Below are positions 13,038-64,000 of a stretch of 64,000 nt of DNA, piece by piece. Both the position numbers and the translations under genes were made by a program. Numbering within the stretch: the first letter of the stretch is position 1; each line of letters begins with the position of its first letter. The notes beneath the pieces are model-generated. The model was not told the origin of the DNA. It worked only from the letters and a program-made list of their open reading frames with translations, and searched no databases. The stretch is from Anaerolineales bacterium (lineage in GTDB: Bacteria > Chloroflexota > Anaerolineae > Anaerolineales > UBA11579): NCBI GenBank assembly GCA_963676155.2, contig CAXXOS010000003.1, positions 18,414-82,413 of the forward strand, given 5' to 3'.

Positions 13038-13040
13038 CAT

Positions 13041-13170
13041 ATACTCCTTTTGTTTACGCGACAAAACGAATTTTTAGCTTTTCTGAGTATCGGACTTAAG
13101 TTTTGAACTATATACCGTAGCGCGACTGTGCCTGATTCTCACAGGACTTCCTCATGATAAAAAGCTAACT
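13041..13170 (-). promoter_or_regulatory. Compact cobalamin (B12) riboswitch plus SD-sequestering expression platform in the metE leader
   Basis: - Minus-strand RNA: P1 is AGCUUUU (13166-13160) pairing with AAAAGCU (13082-13076).
- Core GGAAGUCCUGUGAGAAUCAGGCACAGUCGCGCUACGGUA matches the conserved GGGAA..GGUGNGAAUCC..GCAC.GUC.CGC.AC.GU core.
- It is followed by AAGUCCGAUACUCAG.
- The downstream helix CGUUUUGU/ACAAAAGG can occlude the AAGGAG SD. Confidence 0.7.
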
Positions 13171-13284
13171 CAATAGACAGTATTATAAATCAACAATATA
13201 AAAAAGAGCAGAGAGTCTTTAGATTGAATAATTTATATTTTTTAACCAAAATGTAACCTATTTGCTCCGAACTATGTTAAAATT

Positions 13285-31274: not shown

Positions 31275-31347
31275 CACCCTCGATGCGGGTCGAACGCATA
31301 ACCTACGGCTTAGAAGGCCGGTGCTCTATCCATTGAGCTACGAGGGC
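31275..31347 (-). tRNA. tRNA-Arg (anticodon TCT)
   Basis: - The reverse complement is GCCCTCGTAGCTCAATGGATAGAGCACCGGCCTTCTAAGCCGTAGGTTATGCGTTCGACCCGCATCGAGGGTG and folds as a 73-nt cloverleaf.
- Acceptor stem is 7 bp with G1-U72. The D-arm is GCTC/GAGC.
- The anticodon loop is CT-TCT-AA.
- The T-arm is ATGCG-TTCGACC-CGCAT.
- CCA is not encoded.
- An extended -10 (TGATATAAT) lies 14 nt upstream. Confidence 0.9.
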
Positions 31348-40901: not shown

Positions 40902-41146
40902 TTCCTATTTAATATTGTTAAAATATGGGAATTTACCAAAACTGGCACCTTTATAAAATTTTTCATAAAAGTTCTTGGGAAAATAACGTCTTAATTATAC
41001 TTAAAGGCAAAAAGTTTTGCAAGCCCATTTTCTTGACAGGAAAATATTTCTAATTAGTTAAATGTGTTTTAACAATATTAATTGAAATTGAAACCTATAT
41101 ATAAGAGTAGTAGAATGAGAGGGGATATTATTATATGGAGGTAAAT

Positions 41147-41920
41147 ATGTCACAACAACTAATGCAAACTGGCGAACCTTATTTTTATCTCGGAGATGAG
41201 ATAGGCTGCTTACTGGTTCATGGTTTTACAGCGACACCGAAAGAAATGGCTTATTTAGTAAAATATTTAGCAAAACAAGGTCACACTGTTTTAGGCGTTC
41301 GTTTGGCTGGTCATTCAATGCAACCAAAACATATGGCGCGAAAAAAATATAATGATTGGTTGCTAAGTGTTGAAAATGGATATAAATTACTCAAACCTTT
41401 GTGCAAAAAGATTGTTGTGATTGGAATTTCTATGGGGGGAGCGTTGACCTTAACATTTTCTTCGTTTAATGATGTGGATGGTGTAATCTCAATGGATGCT
41501 CCTTACCGATTAAGTACATCACCGATATATGATAAATTTCGTTTGCCTTTTATTAAATTTTTATCTTTGTTTCATCCTTACTTAGAAAAAGGTCCTTCAA
41601 ATTGGTATCATCCAGAAAGATTATCAGAGAGAATTTCCTATGATGTCAATCCGACGGCAAGCGCTGCTGAATTAATCAAACTTTTGCAAATTTTGAGAAT
41701 CCAAATTCCAAAAATTCAAGCCCCGACATTAATCATTCATTCCATTGATGATGACTATGTTGTCCCAGAAAATGCGGAGTTGATCTTTAATGCATTAACA
41801 ACAGAAGACAAAGAACTCTTTTATATAGAAGAGGCATCTCATGTAATCACAGAAGATAGTGATTTTGAGATCTTATTCCCAAAAATTGAAGAATTTATTG
41901 ACAAAATAAGTGAGAAATAA
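41147..41920 (+). CDS. Alpha/beta-hydrolase carboxylesterase (Est/YvaK-like), copy 1
   Basis: HGFT oxyanion block and the GISMGG nucleophile elbow. The ATG at 41147 lies 6 nt after GGAGG, which is inside the ATG-41135 extension from the track. Confidence 0.8.
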   Translation: MSQQLMQTGEPYFYLGDEIGCLLVHGFTATPKEMAYLVKYLAKQGHTVLGVRLAGHSMQPKHMARKKYNDWLLSVENGYKLLKPLCKKIVVIGISMGGALTLTFSSFNDVDGVISMDAPYRLSTSPIYDKFRLPFIKFLSLFHPYLEKGPSNWYHPERLSERISYDVNPTASAAELIKLLQILRIQIPKIQAPTLIIHSIDDDYVVPENAELIFNALTTEDKELFYIEEASHVITEDSDFEILFPKIEEFIDKISEK

Positions 41921-41922
41921 AA

Positions 41923-42705
41923 ATGAAAATAGAAAATCAAATTATGTTAGGTGCTGAACCAATTTATTTACCCGGAGATGAGATCGGAATAATTTTAATC
42001 CATGGGTTCACAGGTGCACCTTCAGAAATGAAATATTTAGCAAAGTATTTAAATGATTTAGGTCATACCGTTCTAGTCCCGCGTTTATTTGCGCATGGAA
42101 CGAAAGTAGCTGATATGAATCGTGCCCATTGGGAAGATTGGGTGGCATCTGTTGAAGACAGCTATTACTTACTAAAAAACAACTGTAAAAAAATTGTGAT
42201 AGCTGGACTCTCGATGGGAGGAGCTTTATCTTTATATGTTAGTACGTATTTAGATATCGATGCTCTGATTGCAATGGCAGCACCATATGAATCTATTCGC
42301 ACATCTTCAAATCAATTTATTTTCCCTCTTTTAAAAGTAATCTCGATATTCAAGCCATATAATCGTTATGAACCTAACCCTGGTTCAGGTTGGTATACGC
42401 CAGAAAACGCAAAGGAAAATATTTCATATATTGGGTATACCCCGTTAGCTGCAGCCTATGAACTTGATCAATTATTACAAATTTCAAAAGATGAACTATC
42501 AAAGATTACAGCACCTACACAATTAATCTTTTCAAAGTCTGACCAAACAGTACCGATAAGTACAATTCAAAAAATTAAAAATACTGTTGGGGATGCAATA
42601 AAATCAGAGGTTGTTCTTGAGAAAAGTGGTCACGTTTTGCCGATGGATGGCGAAAAAGAAAAAGTCTTTGAATCAATAAGAAACTTTTTAGAAGAAGTCC
42701 TTTGA
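41923..42705 (+). CDS. Alpha/beta-hydrolase carboxylesterase, copy 2 (tandem paralogue)
   Basis: HGFT, GLSMGG and a C-terminal SGHVLP His block. It is collinear with copy 1 and separated from it by a 2-nt gap. Confidence 0.8.
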   Translation: MKIENQIMLGAEPIYLPGDEIGIILIHGFTGAPSEMKYLAKYLNDLGHTVLVPRLFAHGTKVADMNRAHWEDWVASVEDSYYLLKNNCKKIVIAGLSMGGALSLYVSTYLDIDALIAMAAPYESIRTSSNQFIFPLLKVISIFKPYNRYEPNPGSGWYTPENAKENISYIGYTPLAAAYELDQLLQISKDELSKITAPTQLIFSKSDQTVPISTIQKIKNTVGDAIKSEVVLEKSGHVLPMDGEKEKVFESIRNFLEEVL

Positions 42706-42720
42706 GAAAATGCAATCCCA

Positions 42721-44055
42721 TCAGTTTGTTTCAATTGATGGGATTGTTTTTATTAATGTTCCTAGGGTGATCCAGAAAATTATCCCTGAGGGGGTATACA
42801 TATATAAAATATCACTGATGAACATTGATGCACAACTTATTGAAACAATTATTGAAGTAAGAATTAAGATTATGAAATATTCTTCCCTAGGATTTTTTTG
42901 AATAATAATCTTCCAAATTCTTTTTATAATAAAAAATGTAAATAATATGAAAGGGATTAAGCCGATGATTCCTTGACTGATGGAAATATTCAAAATCACA
43001 TTATGTAATTCATAGGCTTTATCGTGTTGGGCAATATAAGTATTGGGGTAGTTTTCTGTAAAATATGGTTTGATGTTTTTGAAACCAATTCCTAAGATTG
43101 GGTGATCGAAAAAAGCATTAATCCCAGATGACCAAATATCAAATCTATTGTTGCTGATGTCAACATTTTCAACATAACTATTTCTTTCAATTTTATGTGT
43201 ATAAAGAGAATTGTAAGCGCTTCTTATTGGACTCGGCAAAATAAGGATAATTGAAACAATTGAAATAGAAACTAGTATTGAAGTAATAGTAGTTTTGTTT
43301 ATTATTTTTTTGAAATATAAAAATGATAAAACACAAATAGTAACTACTAAGGAAATGAAACCAGTTCGGGAATAAGTGAAAATGATGAAAATATAAGAAA
43401 TGGCTATTGAAATAGAAAGTAAAATCTTGAAGATTTTTTTATTCGATTTTATAAGAAAATAGATTGCAATTACAATAGAAAGCACGGCTAGAATGGAAGC
43501 ATAATTTGGGTCTGCATAGACTCCGTATAATCTTGTTCCATTTATTCCAGTATAGTGACAATCATAACCAGTGCATGTGATTCCAGAATAATTTGCTAAA
43601 AGCATAAATTCACTAATCAAGATTATGCTGGTGTTCCAAATCAAAACAAGTTTTAAAAATAGCTCAAAATCTCGCAAATGTTCTTTTTCAAAAAGATTTA
43701 CTTGTGTGGGGAACAAAAGAAGTAAAAGGACTATATGATTTAAGACATCACTATTTGAAAAAGTGACTTTTCCTTTTTCAAACAGAAAGAAAGAAAGAAT
43801 ATTTGAAACCAAAAACAAAGCTAGAAAAATTAAATAAGGTGTTTTGATATACTTTTTATGATTTGCTAGAATATTTACGAAGTAAAAGACAAAGGCAAAA
43901 ACAAAAATTAGGGTGGCGTACTTTAAAATGGAAAAAGGTAAATAAGGAATCCTGAATAAGAAAGAATAAATGAAAAACAAGGAAAAATTAAAAATAGGCC
44001 TTATTCTAAGATTTAGAAATGTTTTATTGAAAAAATTTTGATTTATCATAGTCAA
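42721..44055 (-). CDS. O-antigen ligase/polymerase-like (Wzy_C) polytopic membrane protein
   Basis: 444 aa with more than 10 TM helices and Wzy_C hallmarks YSRTGFISL and ELHNVILNISISQGIIGL. Coding is very AT-rich. Confidence 0.7.
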   Translation of the reverse strand: MTMINQNFFNKTFLNLRIRPIFNFSLFFIYSFLFRIPYLPFSILKYATLIFVFAFVFYFVNILANHKKYIKTPYLIFLALFLVSNILSFFLFEKGKVTFSNSDVLNHIVLLLLLFPTQVNLFEKEHLRDFELFLKLVLIWNTSIILISEFMLLANYSGITCTGYDCHYTGINGTRLYGVYADPNYASILAVLSIVIAIYFLIKSNKKIFKILLSISIAISYIFIIFTYSRTGFISLVVTICVLSFLYFKKIINKTTITSILVSISIVSIILILPSPIRSAYNSLYTHKIERNSYVENVDISNNRFDIWSSGINAFFDHPILGIGFKNIKPYFTENYPNTYIAQHDKAYELHNVILNISISQGIIGLIPFILFTFFIIKRIWKIIIQKNPREEYFIILILTSIIVSISCASMFISDILYMYTPSGIIFWITLGTLIKTIPSIETN

Positions 44056-51923: not shown

Positions 51924-52973
51924 TTGGCTTTTAACCCCATTAACTGGTTCTTAGGGCTATTTTCATTAGACATAGGCATTGACCTTGGAACAGCTAACAC
52001 ACTCGTACATGTGCGCAATAAAGGGATTGTGATAAATGAGCCCTCTTTTGTTGTGATTGACAAAAGAACACATGCACCGTTCCGAGTGGGTGCTGAAGCA
52101 AAAGCAATGGTAGGACGTGTCCCCGGTAAATATATGACCGTACGTCCTCTTCAAGATGGTGTGATTTCAGAATTTGAAATTACTGCCGAAATGTTAGACC
52201 ATTTTATCTCCCGTGCCCACCAGCAAAGTATGGTTCCATTACCTCGTCCTCGTGTAGTGATTGGGGTGCCTTCAGGTGTGACAGAAGTTGAAAAAAGAGC
52301 TGTTTATAATGCGGCTGTTTTGGCTGGTGCTAGAGAAGTGTATTTGATTCCCGAACCAACTGCATCTGCTATTGCTGTGGGATTGCCAGTTTTCGAAATT
52401 GGCGGTTCAATGATCGTCGATATCGGTGGTGGCACAACAGAAATAACAGTTTTCTCTGGTGGGGGAGTAGTGACAAGTCGTTCGTTACGTGTTGCTGGAG
52501 ATGAATTAGACCAAGATATTTATCTCTATATGCGCGATAAATATAATCTCCATATTGGAGATCGTACTGCTGAACAAATTAAGATTACTTTAGGTTCAGC
52601 ATTTCCTCTATCAGAAGAAAAAACTATGGATGTTAGAGGCAAGAATTTAATCACAGGTCTTCCAGAAACAATTGAAGTTTCTTCAATTGAAATCAGAGAT
52701 GCAATTTCTGGTTCTGTGGATGTAATTTTACAAACAATCAAGGATGTTCTGGATGAAGTTCAACCTGAAATCATTTCAGACTTGATGGATATTGGCATTT
52801 GTTTAGCCGGTGGTGGCTCTCTTTTAGGTGGGCTTGCTGATCGTGTCGAACATGATGTGCGCATCAAAGCTTGGGTTGCCGAAGACCCGATGACATGTGT
52901 GGCACGTGGTGCTGGTAAGGCGCTCGAAAATCTCTCCAAATATGCCGGCTTGATGATGCCGTTGGAGAACTAA
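51924..52973 (+). CDS. mreB: Rod-shape-determining actin homologue MreB
   Basis: DIGIDLGTANTLV, the actin-fold phosphate motifs and DIGGGTTE. The TTG start lies 6 nt after GGAG. Confidence 0.95.
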   Translation: MAFNPINWFLGLFSLDIGIDLGTANTLVHVRNKGIVINEPSFVVIDKRTHAPFRVGAEAKAMVGRVPGKYMTVRPLQDGVISEFEITAEMLDHFISRAHQQSMVPLPRPRVVIGVPSGVTEVEKRAVYNAAVLAGAREVYLIPEPTASAIAVGLPVFEIGGSMIVDIGGGTTEITVFSGGGVVTSRSLRVAGDELDQDIYLYMRDKYNLHIGDRTAEQIKITLGSAFPLSEEKTMDVRGKNLITGLPETIEVSSIEIRDAISGSVDVILQTIKDVLDEVQPEIISDLMDIGICLAGGGSLLGGLADRVEHDVRIKAWVAEDPMTCVARGAGKALENLSKYAGLMMPLEN

Positions 52974-52977
52974 AAAT

Positions 52978-53823
52978 TTGGATCTTTTTTCACTTAAAAA
53001 TTGGCAAAAAATTGTAATTATTCTTTTATTGCTAGGTGTTTTGATGTTGGCTATTGGGGGTTATCTTCAACCTGTAATTAAAACTGCGCTAAATCCCGTC
53101 GTTAAAGTTCAAGAATGGTTTTATGATCGTTATCAAGGTATTCGAGTGATGTTGAATGCTTCTAGTGACTTGGTCATGTTGCAACAGCAGAATTCTGAAT
53201 TGGAACAAGAGAATGCGACCTTAAGATCTCAAATAGTCGCCTATCAACAACAAGTGACAGAAGTTGAAATTCTCTCTGCTCTATTAGATTTTGCAAGAGC
53301 ACAACCCCAAAATGAATATCAAGCAGCAGCTGTGATTGGACAAGACCCAAGTCCTTTTTTACAGTACGTGATTATAAATCGCGGTTCTGATGATGGATTG
53401 CGCCGTGGAATGCCTGTTGTTTCAAACAAAGGATTGGTTGGCAGAATTGATGCTGTGACGGCAAATGCAGCTCGTGTGCAATTAATCAATGATGCTGATT
53501 CTGCAATTAATGTAAATATTCAGCCTTCAGACGACACTGGAATTTTGGTTGGTGGATTAAATGGTGAAATCACAATTGAAAAGGTTCCCCAAAATGCTCA
53601 AATCAAACCAGGGGATACGGTTCTAACTTCCGGCATGGGAGGGGCTTACCCAGCGAATATTTTGATTGGAACAGTGTCCGGTGTGCAAGAGCAGCCATCA
53701 GATCTTTTTCAAACTGCCACTGTGCAACCATTTGTCGATTTTTCACAATTAGAAATTTTATTAGTGATTAAGAATTTTCAATCAATTGATGTAACCGATT
53801 TGATTCCAAATGAAACGGAGTGA
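52978..53823 (+). CDS. mreC: Rod-shape-determining protein MreC
   Basis: N-terminal TM helix, a coiled-coil and a C-terminal beta domain (GMPVVSNKGLVGRI ... GDTVLTSGMGGAYPANILIG). It lies between mreB and mreD. Confidence 0.9.
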   Translation: MDLFSLKNWQKIVIILLLLGVLMLAIGGYLQPVIKTALNPVVKVQEWFYDRYQGIRVMLNASSDLVMLQQQNSELEQENATLRSQIVAYQQQVTEVEILSALLDFARAQPQNEYQAAAVIGQDPSPFLQYVIINRGSDDGLRRGMPVVSNKGLVGRIDAVTANAARVQLINDADSAINVNIQPSDDTGILVGGLNGEITIEKVPQNAQIKPGDTVLTSGMGGAYPANILIGTVSGVQEQPSDLFQTATVQPFVDFSQLEILLVIKNFQSIDVTDLIPNETE

Positions 53824-53825
53824 TC

Positions 53826-54329
53826 ATGGCAATTTTGCTTGTTTCTATGATTTTCCTTTTTGCATTAATCTTGCAAGTTGGAATCATTTCAGATATTCAT
53901 TTAATTCAAGGTACTGCTGATCTGGTCCTATTGATTTATATTGCTTGGTCAATCAATAAAAGAACAAAAAATAATTTGGAATTAGCATTAATTGCTGGTA
54001 TGTTGATGAGTTTTGTGACAGCCATTCCATATTATATTGTGATTCCAGCCTACGTGGCAGTTTTTTTTCTAAATAGAGTTATTATCTTAAAATTTTTTGA
54101 TATTTCCATCTTAAAGACTGCAATTTCTATTCTAATCTCAACCTTAGGTTATCTCGGGCTTTCTTATGTATATTTATGGATAATGAAAGGTACGACTATC
54201 TCAATTCAAGATGCATTTGGGATGGTGATTGTGCCTTCAATGCTATTGAATATAGCATTCTCATTACCTGTTTTTGCGGTTATGCGTGAAGTGATTGCAA
54301 TTCTTTATCCAGAATATGAAGAGGCATAA
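53826..54329 (+). CDS. mreD: Rod-shape-determining protein MreD
   Basis: A small 5-TM protein directly after mreC. The ATG at 53826 lies 5 nt after GGAG. The GTG at 53820 in the track is an alternative start. Confidence 0.75.
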   Translation: MAILLVSMIFLFALILQVGIISDIHLIQGTADLVLLIYIAWSINKRTKNNLELALIAGMLMSFVTAIPYYIVIPAYVAVFFLNRVIILKFFDISILKTAISILISTLGYLGLSYVYLWIMKGTTISIQDAFGMVIVPSMLLNIAFSLPVFAVMREVIAILYPEYEEA

Positions 54330-54331
54330 TA

Positions 54332-56434
54332 ATGACAATTCAAGAAATCCATGAGAAAAAAGACACAATTCAAAATTGGCGAGTCAATTTCTTCTTGGGG
54401 ATTATAGGTCTTGCATTTATAATTTTCATAGGGAAATTATTTTATATACAGATTTTAAATGGGGAAACTTACCAAGCACAAGCGGAAGAAAATCGGATTT
54501 CTGAAGTGAGTGTTGCTACCCAGCGTGGAGTGATATATGACAGAAATGGGATTGTCTTAGCGCAAAACACTGCTTCATATAATATCGCTGTCACCCCCGC
54601 AGGTTTACCAGAAGATGAAGCTGAAAAGCAAGCAATTTTTCGAGAGTTATCAGACCTAACTGGGTTACCTGTACATAAAGGAGATGTTGAAGTAGATCCT
54701 TTAATTAATTGTGGCACCAACTTAGGTATTTCTGAAATGATTGAGATTGGTCTCTCATTTCAACCTTACAGTGCAGTTTTAGTGCAATGTGGTGTGGATG
54801 TTGAATTGGCCTTGATTATTGAAGAACGTGCTATTGATATGCCCGGGGTTTCAATTGAAACAGAACCTATGCGGGAATATCCGATTGGTGAAAGTGTATC
54901 AAGTTTGATCGGTTTTTTGGGGCCAATCCCTGAAGCTCAGGAAGATTTATATGTAGATGAAGGGTTTGTTGCAAATCGTGACAAAGTTGGGTATGCAGGT
55001 TTAGAACTCTATTTTGATGAGGAATTAAGGGGAGTACCAGGGAAACGAGTGGTAGAAGTTGATGTCGGTGGTTTAGTTACCAGAGATATTGAAAAACAAG
55101 TGGTACCAAAACCCGGAGAAAATCTCGTACTCACAATAGATGTGCGTTTTCAAGAAGCAGTTTATGAAATTTTGAAGGACGAAATCAAACTCTGGAATGA
55201 TTGGTTAGGTAAAAATGAATATACAAGTGGGGTGGTCGTTGCATTGAATCCAAAAACAGGTGAAGTTCTGGCGATGGTCAATTGGCCTACTTATGAAAAT
55301 AATCGTATGGCAAGTTTTATACCTGCATATTATTATGAACAACTTTCGGTAGATTCCACAAAACCTTTGGTTAATCATGCTGTTGGTTCAGAAGTTCCAG
55401 CTGGTTCAGTTTTTAAATTGGTTACAGCTGTGGGTTCGCTTAATGAAGGTGTAATTACTCCAGAAACCATCGTTGAAACCCCTGGTACTTTGGTAGTGGA
55501 ACAAAAATTTTATGAGGGAGAATCAAGCAATCTTACAATTGAGTACGTTGACTGGAATCGTGCAGGTTTTGGGTCATTAAATGTGGAAGGCGCAATTCAA
55601 AACTCAAGTAATGTATTTTTCTATAAAGTTGGGGGAGGCTTTGAAGACGAAATTCCAGAAGGTTTAGGAATATGTCGTTTAGGTGAATACGCCCGTGCAT
55701 TAGGATATGGAGATTATACTGGTGTTGAGTTATTGGAAGACGGAGATGGTCTCATTCCGAATCCTACATGGAAACGTATCAACCAAGGAGAAAACTGGGC
55801 GACAGGTGACACATATCTTGCTTCCGTTGGACAAGGGTATATTATTGTAACCCCTTTGCAAGTTGTGATGTCTGCATCAACGATTGCAAATGATGGGAAA
55901 TTAATGCAGCCCACATTGCTCTATCAAATACAAGATAGCGAAGGAAATGTAATTCAAGATTTTAGTTCTACAATGAAATGGGATATTACTGATCCTGAGA
56001 CTCCAATGATTACCAAATTTGAAAATCCTTCAGGTATTGGTAGTTGTAAACCACTTGTAGATGAAGCTGGTAATGATGTTAAAGTGAGCGTTGATAGCAA
56101 ATATATTGATGTGGTTCAACAGGGAATGCGAATGGCAGTTCTAGATGGTACATTAGCTGATATTTTTGAAAATTCAAATATTTCAGCAGCAGGCAAAACA
56201 GGAACCGCAGAATATTGTGATGATGTTGCAAGCGCTTTAGGGAAGTGTAATTATGGTGCTTGGCCCTCACATGCTTGGACTCTTGCTTATGCCCCATATG
56301 AAGATCCAGAAATTGCAGTGGTTGCTTTTGTCTATAATGGTACAGAAGGTTCCACTGTCGCTGGCCCTATTGTAGAAAAAGTGCTTCGAGCCTATTTTAA
56401 TCTAAAAGAAGTCGATAGTAATATTGGTAATTAA
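54332..56434 (+). CDS. mrdA: Class B penicillin-binding protein 2 (elongasome transpeptidase)
   Basis: 700 aa with an N-terminal TM helix, a dimerisation domain, and SxxK (GSVFK), SxN (SSN) and KTGTA motifs. Confidence 0.9.
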   Translation: MTIQEIHEKKDTIQNWRVNFFLGIIGLAFIIFIGKLFYIQILNGETYQAQAEENRISEVSVATQRGVIYDRNGIVLAQNTASYNIAVTPAGLPEDEAEKQAIFRELSDLTGLPVHKGDVEVDPLINCGTNLGISEMIEIGLSFQPYSAVLVQCGVDVELALIIEERAIDMPGVSIETEPMREYPIGESVSSLIGFLGPIPEAQEDLYVDEGFVANRDKVGYAGLELYFDEELRGVPGKRVVEVDVGGLVTRDIEKQVVPKPGENLVLTIDVRFQEAVYEILKDEIKLWNDWLGKNEYTSGVVVALNPKTGEVLAMVNWPTYENNRMASFIPAYYYEQLSVDSTKPLVNHAVGSEVPAGSVFKLVTAVGSLNEGVITPETIVETPGTLVVEQKFYEGESSNLTIEYVDWNRAGFGSLNVEGAIQNSSNVFFYKVGGGFEDEIPEGLGICRLGEYARALGYGDYTGVELLEDGDGLIPNPTWKRINQGENWATGDTYLASVGQGYIIVTPLQVVMSASTIANDGKLMQPTLLYQIQDSEGNVIQDFSSTMKWDITDPETPMITKFENPSGIGSCKPLVDEAGNDVKVSVDSKYIDVVQQGMRMAVLDGTLADIFENSNISAAGKTGTAEYCDDVASALGKCNYGAWPSHAWTLAYAPYEDPEIAVVAFVYNGTEGSTVAGPIVEKVLRAYFNLKEVDSNIGN

Positions 56435-56510
56435 TCTTAAGTCAAAAATTACCTTCTTCATCCTTTTTGTGATGAATTGAACATGCTATAATACACATGG
56501 AATAAAAGCT

Positions 56511-57191
56511 ATGGGAAATACTAATTTTGAAATCAAAGGCACTTCAGAAGGATTATTGATTACAATTAATGTATCTGATTGGAAGGATGGAAAAAATATC
56601 CTATTTTCAGAGATTGAAAATCAATCTGATTTTTTATCTGGTGCTGAGATATTCTTAGACGTAAAATCTCAAGTGATTAATGCACTTTCTATGGGCAAGC
56701 TTATTGAACAATTAGAAGATAAAGGGCTCAAACTTTTGGGTGTTCTTTCAGATTCATATAAAACTGAACGATCTGCTTTGTCATATGGGTTAAGAACAAC
56801 GTTAGAAAAACGCAGATCCATTTCAAATTATCAGGCACTTGCGCAAACTCTCTCTACCGAGAAACAGAAGACTGTTTTTTTAAGGCAAACACTACGGTCG
56901 GGATCTATTGTTGAAGCAACAGGAGATGTTACTGTATTAGGCGACGTAAATCCGGGTGCAACGATAATCTCAGCAGGAAACATTGTGGTTTGGGGCAAAC
57001 TTCGAGGAAATGTACATGCTGGATCTGAAGGTAATCAAGAAATGGTTATTTGTGCTTTAGAATTCAATACAGAGCAAGCGCGGATTGCAGGGAAGTTGAT
57101 CGAACTTCCTAAAAAGAGAAAAAAATTACAACCGGAAATAGCAAGCATTGTCGATAATAATACAATTCTCCAAATTTGGAAATCAAAATAG
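56511..57191 (+). CDS. minC: Septum site-determining protein MinC
   Basis: C-terminal beta-helix (GDVNPGATIISAGNIVVWGKLRGNVHAG), located upstream of minD. Confidence 0.85.
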   Translation: MGNTNFEIKGTSEGLLITINVSDWKDGKNILFSEIENQSDFLSGAEIFLDVKSQVINALSMGKLIEQLEDKGLKLLGVLSDSYKTERSALSYGLRTTLEKRRSISNYQALAQTLSTEKQKTVFLRQTLRSGSIVEATGDVTVLGDVNPGATIISAGNIVVWGKLRGNVHAGSEGNQEMVICALEFNTEQARIAGKLIELPKKRKKLQPEIASIVDNNTILQIWKSK

Positions 57192-57209
57192 ACTTTAGAA
57201 GGATTAATT

Positions 57210-58001
57210 ATGGTAGGAAAAGTAATCACCGTCACCTCAGGTAAAGGTGGTGTTGGGAAAACAACAACAACAGCTAATATTGGCGCTGCACTAGCATTAC
57301 GTGGTAAACAAGTAGTGTGTTTAGACGCAGATATTGGTTTGCGCAATCTAGATGTGGTGATGGGCTTAGAAAACCGAATAGTCTATGACATTGTTGATAT
57401 TGTTGAAGGTCGTTGTAAATTAAATCAAGCAATGATTAAAGATAAGAGAATTCCCGGACTGTTCTTAATTCCTGCAGCACAAACTCGTGATAAAAATGCT
57501 GTGTCACCTAATGATATGATTAAGATTTGTGCTGAATTAAGAGAAATCGTTGATTTTGTGATTATTGATTCCCCTGCTGGAATTGAAAGAGGATTTAGAA
57601 ATTCTATTGCACCAGCAGATGAGATTTTGATTGTAACAAATCCGGAAGTTTCTGCTGTTCGCGATGCAGATCGAATCATTGGCATAATTGAAGCTGAAGA
57701 GAAAGGCCCTGCATTTTTAGTCATCAATCGTGTAAATATAAGGATGATTCGCCAAGGTGAAATGTTAGAATCAGAAGACATCTTAGACCTTTTAGGAATT
57801 AGCCTAATAGGAGTTGTTCCTGAAGATGAACAAGTAATTGTAAGCACAAATCGTGGCTTGCCAATAGCTACAGAAGATAAAAATATGGCAGGGAAAGCTT
57901 TTCGCAATATTGCGGGTCGTTTGGATGGAGAAGAAATTCCACTGATGGACTTAGGTTCTGAATCGAATATTTTTAAAAGACTTTTTGGAACATCAAATTA
58001 A
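57210..58001 (+). CDS. minD: Septum site-determining ATPase MinD
   Basis: Deviant Walker A SGKGGVGKTT, and a C-terminal amphipathic helix IFKRLFG. Confidence 0.95.
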   Translation: MVGKVITVTSGKGGVGKTTTTANIGAALALRGKQVVCLDADIGLRNLDVVMGLENRIVYDIVDIVEGRCKLNQAMIKDKRIPGLFLIPAAQTRDKNAVSPNDMIKICAELREIVDFVIIDSPAGIERGFRNSIAPADEILIVTNPEVSAVRDADRIIGIIEAEEKGPAFLVINRVNIRMIRQGEMLESEDILDLLGISLIGVVPEDEQVIVSTNRGLPIATEDKNMAGKAFRNIAGRLDGEEIPLMDLGSESNIFKRLFGTSN

Positions 58002-58013
58002 GAGGTAAAAAAG

Positions 58014-58238
58014 ATGCCCAGAAAAAAAAGAAGTGGAAAAGAAGCAGCCGAAAGACTTCAAGTCATTCTTTATCATGATCGCGCTAGGATATCCCCAGGA
58101 ACAATGGAACAATTAAAAGAAGAATTAGTTCAAGTGATTGTGAAGCATATTGATGTGAACCCGGAGATGGTATCTATTGAATTATCTCAAAAGGGTAGAA
58201 GTCAAAGCTTAGTTGCAGATATTCCTCTAAATAATTAA
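58014..58238 (+). CDS. minE: Cell-division topological specificity factor MinE
   Basis: 74 aa with AAERLQVILYHDR, located directly after minD. Confidence 0.85.
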   Translation: MPRKKRSGKEAAERLQVILYHDRARISPGTMEQLKEELVQVIVKHIDVNPEMVSIELSQKGRSQSLVADIPLNN

Positions 58239-58273
58239 TTGATAAACTTTGACAAATATAAGGAGGCTTTATT

Positions 58274-59386
58274 GTGTCTCTTATTAAGTTATTTAAAAAC
58301 TTTGATTTTATTTTAATTGGCGCTATTATTATTCTTTGTATATTTAGTATAGCAATGATTGATTCTACAATTGCAGGAAATTTTGATTTATTAGACCAAA
58401 ATATTACACTAAAACAAATAATTTTCTTAATTATGAGTTTAGTGCTTGTAATTGGAGTTACGCTCTTAGACTATCATATGTGGGTTATGATTGCTCGATT
58501 GTTATATATCTTTTTGTTCTTTTTTTTGGGGTATGTTTTTATTGCAGGTGATTCAAGTTTTGGTTCTCAAAGATGGATTAATCTTGGATTTATCTCTATT
58601 CAGCCATCAGAATTAGCAAAAATCACAATTGTTGTCGTTTTAGCCGATTTTTTTTCTAGAACAAAAAACAAAGTGAATGATTTTCGCTATATGGCATTAA
58701 GTCTTGTGATTGTCGCTGGTTTAATGGGGTTTATATATCTTCAACCTGATCTCTCAACATCATTAGTATTACTTGTCATTTGGTTTGCCTTGTTATGGTC
58801 GACTGGACTGAGTTGGAAGAATCTCTCAATTTTGTTTATTTCGGGAATTGTATTAAGTGTAATTGCATTCCAATTTTTTCTGCAAGATTACCAAAAACAA
58901 AGAATATTTGACTTCTCAACACCTGACCCTGATGCAAGATATGGTGCGCAGTATAATATTGAACAAGCAATTATTACGTTAGGGAATGGCGGTTTATTAG
59001 GGAGGGGATATGGGCAAGGTTCGCAAATTCAATTACGATTTATGAAAGTTCGTCACACTGACTTTATATTTTCCGCCATCGGGGAAGAATTTGGCTTTAT
59101 AGGAAATATTTTTGTAATTATTATGCTTGCTATTATCCTTTGGAGAATCCTTAGAACAGCTGCACGAGCACATGATACCTTTGGTGCATTAATCTGTGTG
59201 GGGGTTGCCTCTGTGATTTTCTTCCATACTTTAATTAACATAGGAATGAATTTACAATTAATGCCAGTAACTGGTTTACCATTGCCATTTGTTAGTTATG
59301 GAGGGAGTTCGTTGCTCTCAATGATGCTTGGAATTGGACTAGTTGAAAGTGTTGCTGTGAGAACAAACCCAATCGAATCTACATAA
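58274..59386 (+). CDS. rodA: SEDS-family peptidoglycan glycosyltransferase RodA
   Basis: 370 aa with 10 TM helices and motifs SELAKI, HTDFIFSAIGEEFGFIG and LPFVSYGGSS. The GTG start lies 8 nt after AAGGAGG. Confidence 0.9.
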   Translation: MSLIKLFKNFDFILIGAIIILCIFSIAMIDSTIAGNFDLLDQNITLKQIIFLIMSLVLVIGVTLLDYHMWVMIARLLYIFLFFFLGYVFIAGDSSFGSQRWINLGFISIQPSELAKITIVVVLADFFSRTKNKVNDFRYMALSLVIVAGLMGFIYLQPDLSTSLVLLVIWFALLWSTGLSWKNLSILFISGIVLSVIAFQFFLQDYQKQRIFDFSTPDPDARYGAQYNIEQAIITLGNGGLLGRGYGQGSQIQLRFMKVRHTDFIFSAIGEEFGFIGNIFVIIMLAIILWRILRTAARAHDTFGALICVGVASVIFFHTLINIGMNLQLMPVTGLPLPFVSYGGSSLLSMMLGIGLVESVAVRTNPIEST

Positions 59387-59430: not shown

Positions 59431-61029
59431 ATGAAAAAAATATTCAAAAATTTTTCGTTATATCATTTTTTTATTATTGGTTTGATATTTTTCTCTTCAG
59501 TAGCTGCATATTATTTTCATATGTTAACTTATGTAAAATTACCTTCACTGGAAGGATTGAATAAACTCTTATCAATTAATCTACCTACTTATTCAACGGG
59601 ATTAATTGATTATTTTATTTATACATTTTTAGCAGCAATAATTTATTGGATAATACCTAAGAAAATTCGTTGGATATGGTTAGTTTTTTATAGTAGTTTT
59701 ATTATTTTAAGTTGGGATATATTTTATTTATTGTTGCTAATCGCATTAACATTATTTACTTTTTTTGTGGCAAAGAAAATATCGGAAACTACTCTTCCTA
59801 AGAAAAGAATGCTTTGGATGAGAATTGGTGTTATCACCAGTGTTTTGTTTTTATTAGGTTTTAAAACAATTAATGTATTTATTCAATACTTAAGTTTAAA
59901 GGTTGAATTTAATTTAATGACAATTTTGCTTCCAATAGGTATTTCTTTTTATACGTTTCAAGCAATAAGTTATTTAGTTGATATAAATTCTGGTAAATAT
60001 CAAATTAATCAACACCTTGGGCACTATTATTTATATATGTCATTTTTCCCTCGGTTTGTTTCTGGGCCAATTGAAAGAGCTGATAAATTTATTAAACAAG
60101 TACAAGAATATAAATCATTTGATTATGAAGTGTTTGTAGATGGCCTTCGTCAAATATTATGGGGTTTGTTTGTTAAAACAGTAATATCAAATAGATTGTA
60201 TACAATTTATAATTCACCTCTTAAAGTGATTGAATTAATCTCACCTTTAGAAGCTTGGGTTAGCGTTATTGCTTTTTCATTTTATATATATTTTGATTTT
60301 TATGCGTATACACAATTGGCATTGGGAACCGCAAAAATGTTTGGGATTTCTTTAACGAATAATTTTAATAAACCTTATTTTGCCGACTCAATTGTTGAAT
60401 TTTGGAGAAGGTGGCACATATCATTTAGTTCTTGGTTAAGAGATTATGTTTTTATTCCATTGGAATTTTCGACTCGAAGAATAAAGGCGAGATGGGTTCA
60501 TGATTTAAATATAATTTTAACATTTTTAATTAGTGGCCTTTGGCATGGTTCATCAATTAATTTTTTAATTTGGGGGGGATTGCATGGCTTATTTCAAGTT
60601 ATTGAAGGGCGAGTAGCTGAAATTTGGATGAAAATAACAAAAAACAAGAATCCAGAACCTATCTTAGGTAAACCTGGAAGAATTCTTTTATCTTTTTCAT
60701 TAGTAACTTTGTCATGGGTATTTTTTAATAATACTCTTGGTCGAAGTCGAATGATATTCAAATTATTATTAAGTGGTGAAAAATTCTTTCGATTTAAGAT
60801 TGTAAACTTTGAAATATCTATAGAAGATTTCTGGCTTACAATTTTTATGATGTTAATTTTCTTATTGCTAAGTTTAATTGATATTAAACGTGATTTTTTA
60901 GAAATCCTAAAAGAACAACGCTTTTTATTTAGATTAGTTTTCTGTTTATTGTTAGCTGCAATCACATTAATTTTTTCTTACAGTGAATTTGCAAACATTG
61001 AAACTAATTTTATATATACGCAATTTTAA
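59431..61029 (+). CDS. MBOAT-family membrane-bound O-acyltransferase (AlgI/DltB/PatA-like)
   Basis: 532 aa and polytopic. It has FWRRWHISFSSWLRDYVFIPL and the catalytic-His block ISGLWHGSS. Confidence 0.9.
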   Translation: MKKIFKNFSLYHFFIIGLIFFSSVAAYYFHMLTYVKLPSLEGLNKLLSINLPTYSTGLIDYFIYTFLAAIIYWIIPKKIRWIWLVFYSSFIILSWDIFYLLLLIALTLFTFFVAKKISETTLPKKRMLWMRIGVITSVLFLLGFKTINVFIQYLSLKVEFNLMTILLPIGISFYTFQAISYLVDINSGKYQINQHLGHYYLYMSFFPRFVSGPIERADKFIKQVQEYKSFDYEVFVDGLRQILWGLFVKTVISNRLYTIYNSPLKVIELISPLEAWVSVIAFSFYIYFDFYAYTQLALGTAKMFGISLTNNFNKPYFADSIVEFWRRWHISFSSWLRDYVFIPLEFSTRRIKARWVHDLNIILTFLISGLWHGSSINFLIWGGLHGLFQVIEGRVAEIWMKITKNKNPEPILGKPGRILLSFSLVTLSWVFFNNTLGRSRMIFKLLLSGEKFFRFKIVNFEISIEDFWLTIFMMLIFLLLSLIDIKRDFLEILKEQRFLFRLVFCLLLAAITLIFSYSEFANIETNFIYTQF

Positions 61030-61036
61030 TTTTACT

Positions 61037-62077
61037 ATGAAAAAAATAAAATTCCTTTTGCAATTTACAATTGTTTGTTTTTCTTTTTGGATGCTTTATT
61101 TGCTACTTGGAAGGTATATAAATCCTAGAAATCAGTTGTCTCAATTGGAAGTTAAAAAATATCAATTATCACAAGAACAATATTCAGTATTTATTATGGG
61201 TAATTCACATGCATATCGTTCTATACAACCATTGGTTTTAGATGAATTATCAGAAAATAAATCTTTTCTAAATTTAACAACACCTGGAACATGGTTTTTT
61301 CCTTTATATGAATATTTAAAAATGGCAATAAATGAGGGTCAAAAACCTGAAATAGTTCTTGTAGAAGTGACCACATTGAGAATGAAAAACCAGGCTAATA
61401 ATATTCTTGAAATAATGGATGAAAATTATTTAAGTAGAGTATTTGATATGATTCGATTAATACCTGAAAAAGATCACAAAATTGCTTTTTCATTTATACC
61501 TACAGGCTTTGATTGGATGAATTTGCTTAATTATATTCAAAGAAATATTGAGTATTATCAAAGTTTAGAAAATATTGATAACTTTACTTTTGTTAAATCA
61601 AAAGGATATTGGTATCAAGACCATGAACTAGATATAGAAATGTATCAGAAAATAGTATCAACTGGAGATTATCCAATAGATATAAATTATTTTAATAAAC
61701 TTTTTCCAGCTTTTGTATCCTTATGCAAAGAAAATGATATTCAGCTTATTTTGTTTCATTCCCCAGCTGTTTATATTATAGGAAATGAAGATGCATATGC
61801 AGAAGAATTTGCTAAATATTATGGGATACCATATATTGATTTAAATAATAATATTGAAGCCGAAATAGAATTTCCTCACTTGCTTTTTGATGATGCTTTT
61901 TTGGGTATTAATGAACCGTCTAGTAGTCATACAAATGATACTGGCTCTCTTTACGCTTCACTTAAGCTTGCAAAAGAACTTGAAAAATCGGGATTAATTA
62001 AAATAAATCAAAATGCTTACGATTTATATTGGAATCAAATGATATACCGTTTACAAAATAGTAAAGAGGAGAAATAG
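61037..62077 (+). CDS. Membrane-anchored SGNH-like protein, paralogue 1 (putative MBOAT partner)
   Basis: The ATG at 61037 (MKKIKF) lies 7 nt after the MBOAT stop. It has one N-terminal TM helix, YSVFIMGNSH (block-I-like Ser), TPGTW (block-II-like Gly), QKPEIVLVE, and C-terminal SSSHTNDTG (block-V-like His). Confidence 0.6.
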   Translation: MKKIKFLLQFTIVCFSFWMLYLLLGRYINPRNQLSQLEVKKYQLSQEQYSVFIMGNSHAYRSIQPLVLDELSENKSFLNLTTPGTWFFPLYEYLKMAINEGQKPEIVLVEVTTLRMKNQANNILEIMDENYLSRVFDMIRLIPEKDHKIAFSFIPTGFDWMNLLNYIQRNIEYYQSLENIDNFTFVKSKGYWYQDHELDIEMYQKIVSTGDYPIDINYFNKLFPAFVSLCKENDIQLILFHSPAVYIIGNEDAYAEEFAKYYGIPYIDLNNNIEAEIEFPHLLFDDAFLGINEPSSSHTNDTGSLYASLKLAKELEKSGLIKINQNAYDLYWNQMIYRLQNSKEEK

Positions 62078-62079
62078 CT

Positions 62080-63095
62080 TTGAAAAAAATTTTGAGTTTG
62101 TCACAAGCAATGATAATAATTGTGACCTTTTTTTTAGGCTTTATATGGCTTGATAGAATTTTATTTCCTTTATATTCCGAAATAGATATGGAAAGTAAAA
62201 TTGAATTACTTGAAAAAGATAAATATTCAATTTTTATTATGGGTAATTCTCATTCGGTTAATTCTTATATTCCGAATCTTTTAAACCAAATAACTATAAA
62301 TCAAAACTTTATTAATTATTCAACATCAGGTGTCGGTTTGAATTCGTTATATTTTTATTTAGAAAATGCTATTCAAAAAAATCAAAAACCGGATTTAATA
62401 TTGTTAGAAACTTATTCTTTTTATTTTGATGAATATGATCAGAGTTTATTTTCATTAAAAGGAAATAATTATATTAAATCGTTTTATGATATTCAAAAAT
62501 TTATACCTATTGATGAGCACTTAATATCATATTCTTCTTTATTTATGAACTATAATTATCGAGATGTGTTAAAAACAATTTCAAAGAATTTTAATTTTTT
62601 AGAAAATAGAAAAGAAAACAAAGATAACCCTTGGGTTTTGTCTAAAGGTTATCGTATTGATTATTTATATGACATTGTTCCAAAAGAAAATTATGAAGAT
62701 TTATTAATGCTAGGCTCTACAAAATTAAAAATCAGTAAATATGAAAACATTTTTAAAAAATTTCTTTTATTATGTAGAAAAAATAATATAGAAGTAATTT
62801 TGATTAAGTCACCTAGTATAAATTTAATTAATAATAAAGATCAATATAGTGAAGAATTAGCTAAAGAATTTAATATTAAGTATATTGATTTAAATCAAAC
62901 AATAATATTTTTTTTGATGGATTTATTTTAGGAGATGGTGTTGTTAATAGTCATACAAATCACTATGGCGCACAATACTCATCTTTAAAATTGGTTCAAT
63001 ATTTGAATCAAATGGGTTATCTTGAATTAGATGAAAATAAGTTTAACTATTATTGGGAGAAGTTTGAGGAAACTATGATTAGTATTGAAAAATAA
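62080..63095 (+). pseudogene. SGNH-like paralogue 2, interrupted by a frameshift in a T8 tract
   Basis: - The frame-1 ORF 62080-62931 carries YSIFIMGNSH and QKPDLILLE.
- The conserved C-terminus FFDGFILGDGVVNSHTNHYGAQYSSLKL...ISIEK continues in another frame from the T8 tract at 62908-62915 to the stop at 63093-63095.
- It aligns with the paralogue-1 C-terminus LLFDDAFLG...SSSHTNDTGSLYASLKL.
- T9 would restore one ORF of about 339 aa. Confidence 0.75.
62908..62915 (+). repeat. T8 homopolymer at the frameshift site
   Basis: Read directly from the sequence: ...caaacaataata-TTTTTTTT-gatggattt... Confidence 0.95.
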
Positions 63096-63134
63096 TCCTT
63101 CATATCATTATTAATATATTTATTTGAGGTTTAA

Positions 63135-64000
63135 ATGTTTATAACAGACAAAAACAAATTTTTTTTTCAAGGATTAATTATCTTTATTATAGTCTTTTTT
63201 GGTTATCGAAATTTTGAAAAAATTGTTTATCTTCATTATCCTGGAAGATTGCTTGAATCAAAAGAATACTTATTAAAAAATGAAAAATATTCAATAATAA
63301 TAATGGGGAATTCTCACACATCTTATTCAATCAATCCTGAAATTATTAATAATGTAATGAAAAATGGAAGTTCTTTAAATTTATCTTCAAATGGAGCAGG
63401 AATTCCAACAATATATTTCTATCTAAAAAAGGCAATAGATCTTGGACAAAAACCAGATATTTTACTAATTGAGGCTTATACATTTCGATATAATGATTTT
63501 GATGAAAGTTTACCGATGATAAATAATAAAATATATCAAAAGTCAATATTTGATATATTAACTTTAATCCCAATAAAAGATCACAATCGTTCTTTTTCTT
63601 TTTTTTCTGAAAATTATCGTTGGAAAAATCTATTTTCGACGATAGAAACAAATATTGAATATAGAAAAGAAATTAAAAATATTGAAGAATATGAAAAGAA
63701 TGAATTTAAAGGATATATTCAAGTTGAAGAAATAGTCTCAAGAGAATCTTTTGATAATACTTATCAAAGAGATGCTTTTCCAATAGATTTTGAATATTAT
63801 GAAAAATTGATTCTTGAGATAATGCATATATGTGAACAAAATGATATAGAATTGTTGTTTTTTAGAGCTCCTACTATCAATACATTAGGTATACACGATG
63901 AATATATGCAACACTTTGCACATACAAATGTGATAGAGTTTCTTGACTTAAACGATAATATATTGAATGAGATTGATAATCCAAGATTATTATTTTCTGA
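63135..64000 (+). CDS. SGNH-like paralogue 3 (3' end outside window; absent from the ORF track)
   Basis: The ATG at 63135 follows a GAGG RBS. I translated this frame by hand and it is open to the window end. It has an N-terminal TM helix, YSIIIMGNSH, SNGAG, QKPDILLIE, and FLDLN near the end. It is collinear with paralogues 1 and 2. Confidence 0.7.
   Translation, partial: MFITDKNKFFFQGLIIFIIVFFGYRNFEKIVYLHYPGRLLESKEYLLKNEKYSIIIMGNSHTSYSINPEIINNVMKNGSSLNLSSNGAGIPTIYFYLKKAIDLGQKPDILLIEAYTFRYNDFDESLPMINNKIYQKSIFDILTLIPIKDHNRSFSFFSENYRWKNLFSTIETNIEYRKEIKNIEEYEKNEFKGYIQVEEIVSRESFDNTYQRDAFPIDFEYYEKLILEIMHICEQNDIELLFFRAPTINTLGIHDEYMQHFAHTNVIEFLDLNDNILNEIDNPRLLFS

Follow-up and report, generated by a model that had tools for sequence, protein, structure and literature searches.

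What does a single acyltransferase of the MBOAT family do when three membrane-anchored proteins of one kind are encoded directly behind it, and on which polymer would such a set of proteins act? This question is raised by a locus at the right end of a 64,000-nucleotide (nt) stretch of DNA from an Anaerolineales bacterium (assembly GCA_963676155.2, contig CAXXOS010000003.1, positions 18,414 to 82,413), which we refer to as the window. In the window, rodA (58274–59386, + strand; FtsW/RodA/SpoVE family) is followed by open reading frames on the same strand for an MBOAT of 532 amino acids (59431–61029) and for three head-to-tail paralogues, namely P1 (61037–62077; 346 amino acids), the disrupted P2 (62080 to ~63095) and P3 (63135–64000; 288 codons up to the window end). 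The MBOAT gene starts 44 nt past the rodA stop at 59386 and the later intergenic gaps measure 7, 2 and 39 nt, which confirmed the layout given in a preliminary description of the sequence. MBOAT-SGNH pairs are the main bacterial route to acylated wall polymers, and the preliminary description had regarded the locus as an expanded O-acylation module of this type, with membrane-anchored SGNH-type partners. This core claim is supported by the fold and the motifs of the partners and by their adjacency to MBOATs in other genomes. We therefore consider it likely that the locus encodes a two-component O-acyltransferase of the MBOAT-SGNH type that acts on an extracytoplasmic envelope polymer, in which one MBOAT serves several alternative transferases.

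The identification of the MBOAT from its motifs was borne out by Pfam model PF03062, which it matched with 87.8 bits (E 1.1e-24; cut-off 27), and its class is that of PatA, AlgI and WssH. The protein contains WRRWHISFSSWLRDYVF from residue 325 onwards and a GLWHG motif, the His372 of which is encoded by codon 60544–60546 and aligns with the GFWHG motif of the DltB structure 6bug. The two DltB structures 6bug and 8jem cover residues 151–435 only, with WHG placed on WHG. The ~95 residues past this alignment include two extra hydrophobic helices according to hydropathy (~460–490 and 496–523), and the protein ends in ...NFIYTQF. For non-DltB bacterial MBOATs, a C-terminal FXYXXF acyl-shuttle motif borne by a further pair of transmembrane (TM) helices has been described (Anderson et al., JBC 2025, PMC12148441). 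The function of this motif was demonstrated for PatA and DltX: PatA self-acetylates the motif tyrosine using acetyl-coenzyme A (acetyl-CoA), and the SGNH protein PatB takes the acetyl-Tyr as its donor (PMC12148441). The FIYTQF hexapeptide of the window MBOAT (residues 527–532; 61009–61026, + strand) fits the published motif, and its Tyr529 is the predicted covalent acyl carrier. This tail had gone unmentioned in the preliminary description. An FXYXXF-type tail is kept in the MBOATs of four other loci, referred to as L002 (FIYTQF), L080 (FIYAEF), L076 and L079, and MBOATs beside distant members of the partner family end in FIYRFF and LIYAGF. DltB (TIGR04091) was the best NCBIfam match, but its score of 170.6 bits stayed under the equivalog cut-off of 375, and the MBOAT is therefore not DltB. 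Judged by its sequence, it is PatA/AlgI-like and matches the description of the non-Dlt bacterial MBOATs (PMC12148441).

The three partners are 33–38% identical in pairwise comparisons and have in common the motif YS(V/I)(F/I)IMGNSH, a QKP(E/D) block and the motif SHTN..G..Y.SLKL. With a single N-terminal hydrophobic segment in each (hydropathy), the partners thus display the shared architecture that had been noted before. In P1, the GNSH serine is Ser57 (61205–61207), the SHTN histidine is His298 (61928–61930) and Asp286 is invariant. In P3, the GNSH serine is Ser60 (63312–63314). The full length of P3, 348 amino acids, is known from a colinear relative, L001 (ENA ERZ21831104), which lies on a 2.41-Mb contig and is 97.8% identical to the window at the nucleotide level. 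Conservation along the partners is uneven, with 44–52% identity at the catalytic blocks versus 20–28% in residues 121–220, the helical insert. All three match the family profile A5 (E 4e-52, 3e-41 and 3e-41), which was built from sequences including P1 and the relatives' versions of P2 and P3.

A profile made from the paralogues alone reached two distant proteins, P0004 (GSSH...DSYH, E 5e-13) and P0005 (GDSE...NHLNYYGA, E 3e-7), and thereby GDS-type sequences, which is evidence of family membership that does not depend on A5. Word-indexed protein searches had yielded one and then five proteins, and the impression of a tiny family that they gave was overturned by an exhaustive profile search, which returned 12,174 representative clusters at E≤1e-3 and 5,917 at E≤1e-10, the clusters being counted at 50% identity. 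Peptide patterns derived from the paralogues gave 191 matches in GTDB genomes, none of which was a true relative. Among 105 family members, G55, S57, P243, H298 and G303 are invariant, and the consensus reads GDSxxYxSxSP ... QxPKxVxLET ... KGY ... LCxxNxIxLxL..PS ... YIDxN ... DxGxHLNxxGA. Block I of the family aligns with GNS or GDS, and block V with the catalytic histidine, of the solved GDSL proteins 9hi6, 4iyj, 3mil and 2hsj. The serine and histidine that had been singled out beforehand are thus both invariant in the 105 relatives and align with the catalytic blocks of solved enzymes. The idea that GNSH is an unusual replacement of GDS did not stand, because the solved GDSL-like protein 4iyj also carries GNS and the family consensus itself is GDS.

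An AlphaFold2 model of P1, based on a deep alignment, had a mean predicted local distance difference test score of 88.9 and a predicted template modelling score of 0.88. When this model was searched with Foldseek, DltD came first (6pfx, E 2.2e-4; 6o93), followed by GDSL esterases, with a probability of 1.00; the matches of an earlier model, made from a shallow alignment, had also been SGNH proteins throughout. In the model, the helix that follows strand 1 has the serine at its N-cap, while the histidine directly precedes the last long helix. The SGNH fold that had been proposed for the partners is thus backed by both the profile and the structural matches, and the model indicates that DltD is their nearest solved relative. 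Several known families were considered and rejected. Although DltD is structurally nearest, P1–P3 gave no match to PF04914 at E values up to 1. DUF1574 (PF07611, SGNH clan) is the only Pfam model touched by any window paralogue, but P3 scored 23.2 bits (E 5e-5), under the gathering cut-off of 29.1, and P1 and P2 did not match. Membership of the PatB/DUF459 family found no support in Pfam, and C. jejuni PatB (8tlb) ranked 49th in Foldseek (E 0.13, probability 0.20). The AlgX/AlgJ/WssI and DHHW families are permuted, and AlgX-type families have the catalytic histidine block ahead of the serine block (PMC9487903); in the partners the order is Ser57, then His298. Among the 105 members, Pfam matches were to Lipase_GDSL_2 (27), and weakly to DUF1574 (5), DltD (2) and ALGX (1). 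The partners belong to a large DltD-like family that is effectively without a Pfam model, the named members of which are annotated as hypothetical or as generic SGNH/GDSL proteins.

The coupling of these partners to MBOATs was followed in 71 metagenome loci, of which 50 were usable because their sequence extended for 1.5 kb or more upstream of the first partner. The loci were drawn via a single peptide pattern of a five-sequence alignment, a biased and redundant sample that was hence de-replicated. An MBOAT was located directly upstream, on the same strand, in 48 of the 50 loci, and this adjacency persisted upon de-replication (30 of 32 clusters at 90% identity; 13 of 15 at 50%). This outcome was in favour of the preliminary description. 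An FxYxxF-like terminal hexapeptide, most commonly FIYNQF, was present in 43 of the 48 partner-adjacent MBOATs. In three single look-ups of family members, the partner was directly behind an MBOAT each time. A tandem array of partners was found in only one other locus of the metagenome sample.

Conceivably, the position of the module could reveal its substrate. In this case, it would represent a peptidoglycan-specific O-acetylation system, analogous to PatA/PatB and placed behind rodA to act on the nascent glycan strands of the elongasome. The rodA gene is the final gene of a mreB-mreC-mreD-PBP2-minC-minD-minE-rodA cluster (51924–59386), for which the Pfam labels were transferred from the colinear locus L001. 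A terminator scan found no terminator-like site in the 44-nt gap between rodA and the MBOAT gene, which makes co-transcription with the mre-PBP2-min-rodA genes plausible; a promoter scan of the region showed promoter-like sites only at chance level. Moreover, the MBOAT belongs to the PatA class and bears the FXYXXF tail. However, among 74 RodA-anchored loci an MBOAT or partner was present near rodA only in L001 and L002, the closest GTDB representative (OY760067.1), and in the rodA flanks of none of the 72 GTDB species representatives that are more distant. Since the adjacency is restricted to this clade, it carries little information on the substrate, and the hint at peptidoglycan that had been seen in the rodA position proved weak. 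Furthermore, the module differs in composition from its surroundings. Its AT-richness, previously noted, amounts to a guanine-cytosine (GC) content of 22–27% in the window, compared to 37% for mreB-rodA, and in all four clade genomes it forms a low-GC island (22–29% versus 34–38%), which suggests insertion. Together with the finding that the partners are not of the PatB family, this renders a peptidoglycan-specific system unlikely in our view. The context within the clade is constant, with rodA, the module, and then a convergent glyoxalase-fold gene and a methylmalonyl-CoA mutase gene. Two antisense open reading frames within the module (60594–60965 and 63346–63651) were taken as chance frames in AT-rich DNA.

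The set of partners itself varies between closely related genomes. One partner gene is present in L002 and one in L080, three in the window and in L001, and four in L083. The latter is another strain of the sample that also gave L001, and the flanking proteins of the two are 97–99.7% identical. The suspicion that more paralogues lie past the window edge was therefore right for the sister strain L083, but not for L001, the closest genome, which has exactly three. Copies 1–3 of L083 are 94, 86 and 89% identical to partner types 1–3, and the fourth copy, d, shares 57% identity with the lone L002 partner. Except for this 57% pair, partner types are 31–39% identical to one another. All types fall in one clade of a tree of 115 family sequences, and the duplications therefore took place within this Anaerolineales lineage. 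The third partner gene of L001 (L001:12124–13170) is chimeric when compared to L083:9081–11164. From nt 1 to ~950 it follows copy c of L083, while its last ~90 nt and the downstream spacer follow copy d. The conserved block that encodes SLKL holds the crossover, such that about the last 30 codons stem from the fourth paralogue type. This switch implies that the three-copy state arose via recombination of c and d at their conserved 3′ blocks, by which ~1 kb was deleted and a chimera was left behind. The window, considered up to position 64000, ends ahead of this c/d junction.

The partners also diverge much faster than the genes around them. RodA of the window is 94% identical to that of L002 and 78% identical to that of L080, with the next relatives at ~50% in the RodA-anchored loci, and the corresponding identities of the MBOAT are 78 and 59%. 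Between L001 and L083, the ratio of nonsynonymous to synonymous substitution rates (dN/dS) of the partners was 0.25, 0.28 and 0.48, compared to 0.05 for the MBOAT and 0.00–0.09 across eleven flanking genes, dS being similar. Partner types that share so little identity where RodA retains 78–94%, and that come in one to four copies, are unexpected for an invariant acceptor. As the partners diverge very fast, such an acceptor is not the obvious guess, and their variability makes peptidoglycan less probable. Our preferred guess, reached by inference only, is a variable surface glycan.

The disruption of P2 bears on the question whether all copies are needed. P2 starts with TTG, its 283-codon frame ends with a stop at 62931, and the remainder lies in another frame to ~63095. 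This C-terminal part contains the SHTN histidine (62952–62954) and matches the family profile with an E value of 6e-26. It had been suggested that P2 is switched off at a homopolymer. Alignment with L001, however, revealed a 25-nt deletion (AAAACAAGATATTAAAAACCCAAGA) at the 62906/62907 junction, directly 5′ of a T8 run, and this deletion is the sole indel over 11 kb between the two sequences. The T8 run is equal in the window and L001, as are all T/A runs, and homopolymer slippage or phase variation of P2 was thus rejected. In L001 and L083, P2 is intact (346 amino acids). The N-terminal part of the broken gene still shows a dN/dS of 0.06 versus L001; the lesion is therefore either recent or an assembly error.

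Such a loss could also mean that the paralogues are redundant duplicates drifting under relaxed constraint, where one partner suffices and the expansion has no adaptive meaning. Supporting this idea, related genomes get by with one partner, one copy was lost through recombination in L001, and the dN/dS values of the partners are 3–10 times those of neighbouring genes. Nevertheless, we regard drift of this kind as improbable. With values of 0.25–0.48, well below 1, the partners are still under purifying selection, and no copy in any strain has lost a catalytic residue. The types are old (32–39% identity), yet each is kept at 86–94% identity between strains, and the low ratio in the N-terminal part of P2 dates its loss as recent, if it is no assembly artefact. 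In a different division of labour, at least one of the paralogues would be an O-acyl esterase that trims or edits the modification instead of installing it, like Ape1 of the pat operon. The SGNH fold allows both esterase and transferase chemistry, most structural neighbours of the partners are esterases, and an SGNH esterase is present in the PatA/PatB operon (PMC12148441). However, all copies are TM-anchored, they share one clade with single-copy partners that must perform the transferase step, and no copy has a distinguishing change in the active site, so that we give an editing function little credence.

Several observations weigh against the assignment of the locus as an MBOAT-SGNH O-acyltransferase. 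The search of SGNH-family models that had been recommended succeeded for relatives, through Lipase_GDSL_2, but not for P1–P3, which yielded nothing over threshold in Pfam or NCBIfam and reached no model of the SGNH clan. The partners lack the block III motif GxND and have (L/V)E(V/T/A)... in its place, where E110 is invariant. The residue at −3 of the partner histidine is Ser or Val instead of Asp, and the invariant Asp286 of P1 stands 12 residues before His298, past a clade-specific insert of 8–11 residues. The partner rates fit changing acceptor recognition, but they also fit relaxed constraint. Lastly, three family occurrences, L123, L152 and P0010, are without an adjacent MBOAT, so that strict dependence on an MBOAT may not hold for the family. 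L123 (2298–5274), an unrelated second case on a metagenome contig, holds three tandem partner paralogues of 333, 333 and 322 amino acids. There, an MBOAT was not found within 2.3 kb upstream; the upstream gene is gidB and a sugar epimerase/dehydratase gene is located downstream. L152 (679–8649) has a lone partner homologue in a teichoic-acid-like locus, with a GT2-TagF fusion and an ABC-2 TagG/TagH-like transporter, which continues into Mur ligase and Ddl genes. P0010 (L084:8001–9065; 354 amino acids) is an orphan partner in the L002 genome, ~1.5 Mb from the rodA locus, and its neighbours are three genes for PlsC-type acyltransferases (PF01553) and an ABC-2 transporter.

The acyl donor is subject to a further reservation. 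Non-Dlt MBOAT/SGNH pathways are said to be without the carrier protein of the Dlt pathway (PMC12148441). In L079 (1399–6960; Logan ERR245772), the family member P0005, the protein cluster of which includes Anaerocolumna jejuensis, resides in a dlt-like operon. This operon encodes an adenosine monophosphate (AMP)-binding enzyme, a pyridoxal phosphate-dependent enzyme resembling ornithine/diaminopimelate decarboxylases, a 75-residue carrier protein (LDSFSIL), an MBOAT and the partner. The MBOAT nevertheless ends in a fused LIYAGF, and a donor of the carrier-protein type thus occurs together with a fused shuttle. With an AMP-ligase and a carrier protein in use in L079, not all members of the family depend on an acyl-CoA donor, which also speaks against the proposed pathway. 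The operon is at the same time an argument for a Dlt-like function of the window locus, by which a D-alanyl or other aminoacyl group would be attached to a teichoic-acid-like polymer, and it is joined by the facts that DltB is the best NCBIfam match of the window MBOAT and DltD the best structural match of its partner. Still, the DltB score is far under the cut-off and the shuttle tail is fused to the MBOAT on extra helices. Furthermore, no dltA-, dltC- or dltX-like genes are present in the locus, and no AMP-ligase or carrier-protein gene was found in the 21-kb locus L001. Aminoacylation by the window module is hence very hard to reconcile with these data.

The O-acyltransferase pathway that we propose instead joins features seen directly, namely the gene layout, the family and fold assignment, the conservation of motifs, the MBOAT adjacency, the copy-number variation and the raised dN/dS, with an acyl-Tyr relay, an acetyl-CoA donor and an outward topology that are inferred from the mechanisms published for PatAB and Dlt. 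The MBOAT would load an acyl group at the cytoplasmic face, most likely acetyl from acetyl-CoA, and His372 would move it onto Tyr529 in the FIYTQF tail, on the outer side of the membrane. Each anchored SGNH partner would then accept the acyl group on the block I Ser57 of GNSH, assisted by His298 and probably Asp286, and pass it to a hydroxyl of the acceptor polymer. The partners most likely differ in their specificity for the acceptor or the position on it, as the catalytic blocks are conserved and the central helical insert is most variable. Their set undergoes remodelling between strains, with 1, 3 or 4 copies, one of which carries the 25-nt deletion and one of which is chimeric. A more far-reaching idea, which we put forward only tentatively and think rather doubtful, is that one MBOAT shuttle supplies a cassette that differs between strains and comprises one to four fast-evolving SGNH transferases, each for a different acceptor or position. 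Recombination between paralogues at the conserved catalytic blocks would then create, delete and hybridise specificities, resulting in a combinatorial, serotype-like O-acylation of surface glycans in Anaerolineales that is possibly driven by phages or predators.

This kind of system is already known, and the new elements are the family to which the partners belong, the array of one to four partners per MBOAT and the dynamics of recombination and deletion. As in PatA/PatB of Neisseria and Campylobacter, a separate MBOAT has two extra C-terminal TM helices and an FXYXXF tyrosine shuttle (FIYANF in N. gonorrhoeae PatA versus FIYTQF in the window), the SGNH partner is held by one N-terminal helix with the canonical order of serine and histidine, and there is no carrier protein. 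Unlike PatA/PatB, the window has three to four partners, counting those of related strains, instead of one; these are not DUF459/PatB proteins, no gene for an Ape1-type esterase is present at the locus and the host belongs to the Chloroflexota. The Dlt system (DltA, DltB, DltC, DltD and DltX) shares the combination of an MBOAT with a TM-anchored SGNH protein bearing a helical insert, and it provides the nearest structures for both the partner (DltD; 6pfx, 6o93) and the MBOAT core (DltB). It differs in that the shuttle is borne by a microprotein and not fused to the MBOAT, in that DltA, DltC and DltX genes are missing from the window locus, in the sub-threshold DltB score of the MBOAT and in the lack of a Pfam DltD match of the partners. 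The closest precedent for multiple partners is AlgI/AlgJ/AlgX/AlgF, where a single MBOAT supplies both AlgJ and AlgX, two SGNH-like proteins (PMC9487903), and in which, as in WssH/WssI, the O-acetylated acceptor is an exopolysaccharide (alginate and cellulose, respectively). In contrast to the window partners, AlgJ, AlgX and WssI are members of the AlgX family, which is circularly permuted, with histidine before serine. Nor are AlgJ and AlgX tandem paralogues of recent origin or reported to vary in copy number, and an AlgF-like gene is absent from the window locus. Bacillus cereus and B. anthracis, which have no outer membrane, use the pairs PatA1/PatB1 and PatA2/PatB2, again an MBOAT with an SGNH-superfamily partner, for O-acetylation of the secondary cell wall polysaccharide. 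The system is duplicated there within one genome, but each DHHW-type permuted partner has its own MBOAT, whereas the window combines one MBOAT with a DltD-like array. DUF1574, the one Pfam model touched by P3, was matched under the gathering threshold in all cases, including the five weak matches among the 105 relatives.

A few other features of the region were recorded. A Wzy_C/O-antigen-ligase-family membrane protein is encoded ~15 kb 5′ of the module (42721–44055, − strand) and is the sole other surface-glycan gene among ten open reading frames scanned in that part of the window. It is close to a tandem pair of α/β-hydrolase genes (Hydrolase_4/Abhydrolase_6; 41135–42705, + strand). An adenosylcobalamin riboswitch (13038–13178, − strand; 66.5 bits) adjoins the 5′ side of the gene for the cobalamin-independent methionine synthase MetE (10776–13064, − strand), which is the classic arrangement of a B12-repressed metE. 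One transfer RNA gene is located at 31275–31347 (− strand; Rfam, 63.9 bits). In L001, past the position that corresponds to the right edge of the window and downstream of the convergent glyoxalase-fold and methylmalonyl-CoA mutase genes, an Rrf2 regulator gene is followed by a mevalonate-pathway cluster (L001:16006–19926) for 3-hydroxy-3-methylglutaryl (HMG)-CoA reductase, HMG-CoA synthase, thiolase and a DUF35-type (zf-ChsH2/OB) protein.

To our knowledge, only four families of MBOAT partners have been studied so far, namely PatB, AlgX/AlgJ/WssI, DHHW and DltD. The locus described here would add a fifth, DltD-like family with ~12,000 clusters at 50% identity, and naming this family would aid the annotation of thousands of envelope loci. 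The occurrence of one to four interchangeable partners among near-identical strains represents a natural experiment on how acceptor specificity may be encoded in the SGNH partner, and the array could show whether one FXYXXF tail serves several transferases. For the Chloroflexota, the envelopes of which are poorly characterised, these findings point to variation of the surface chemistry at the level of strains.

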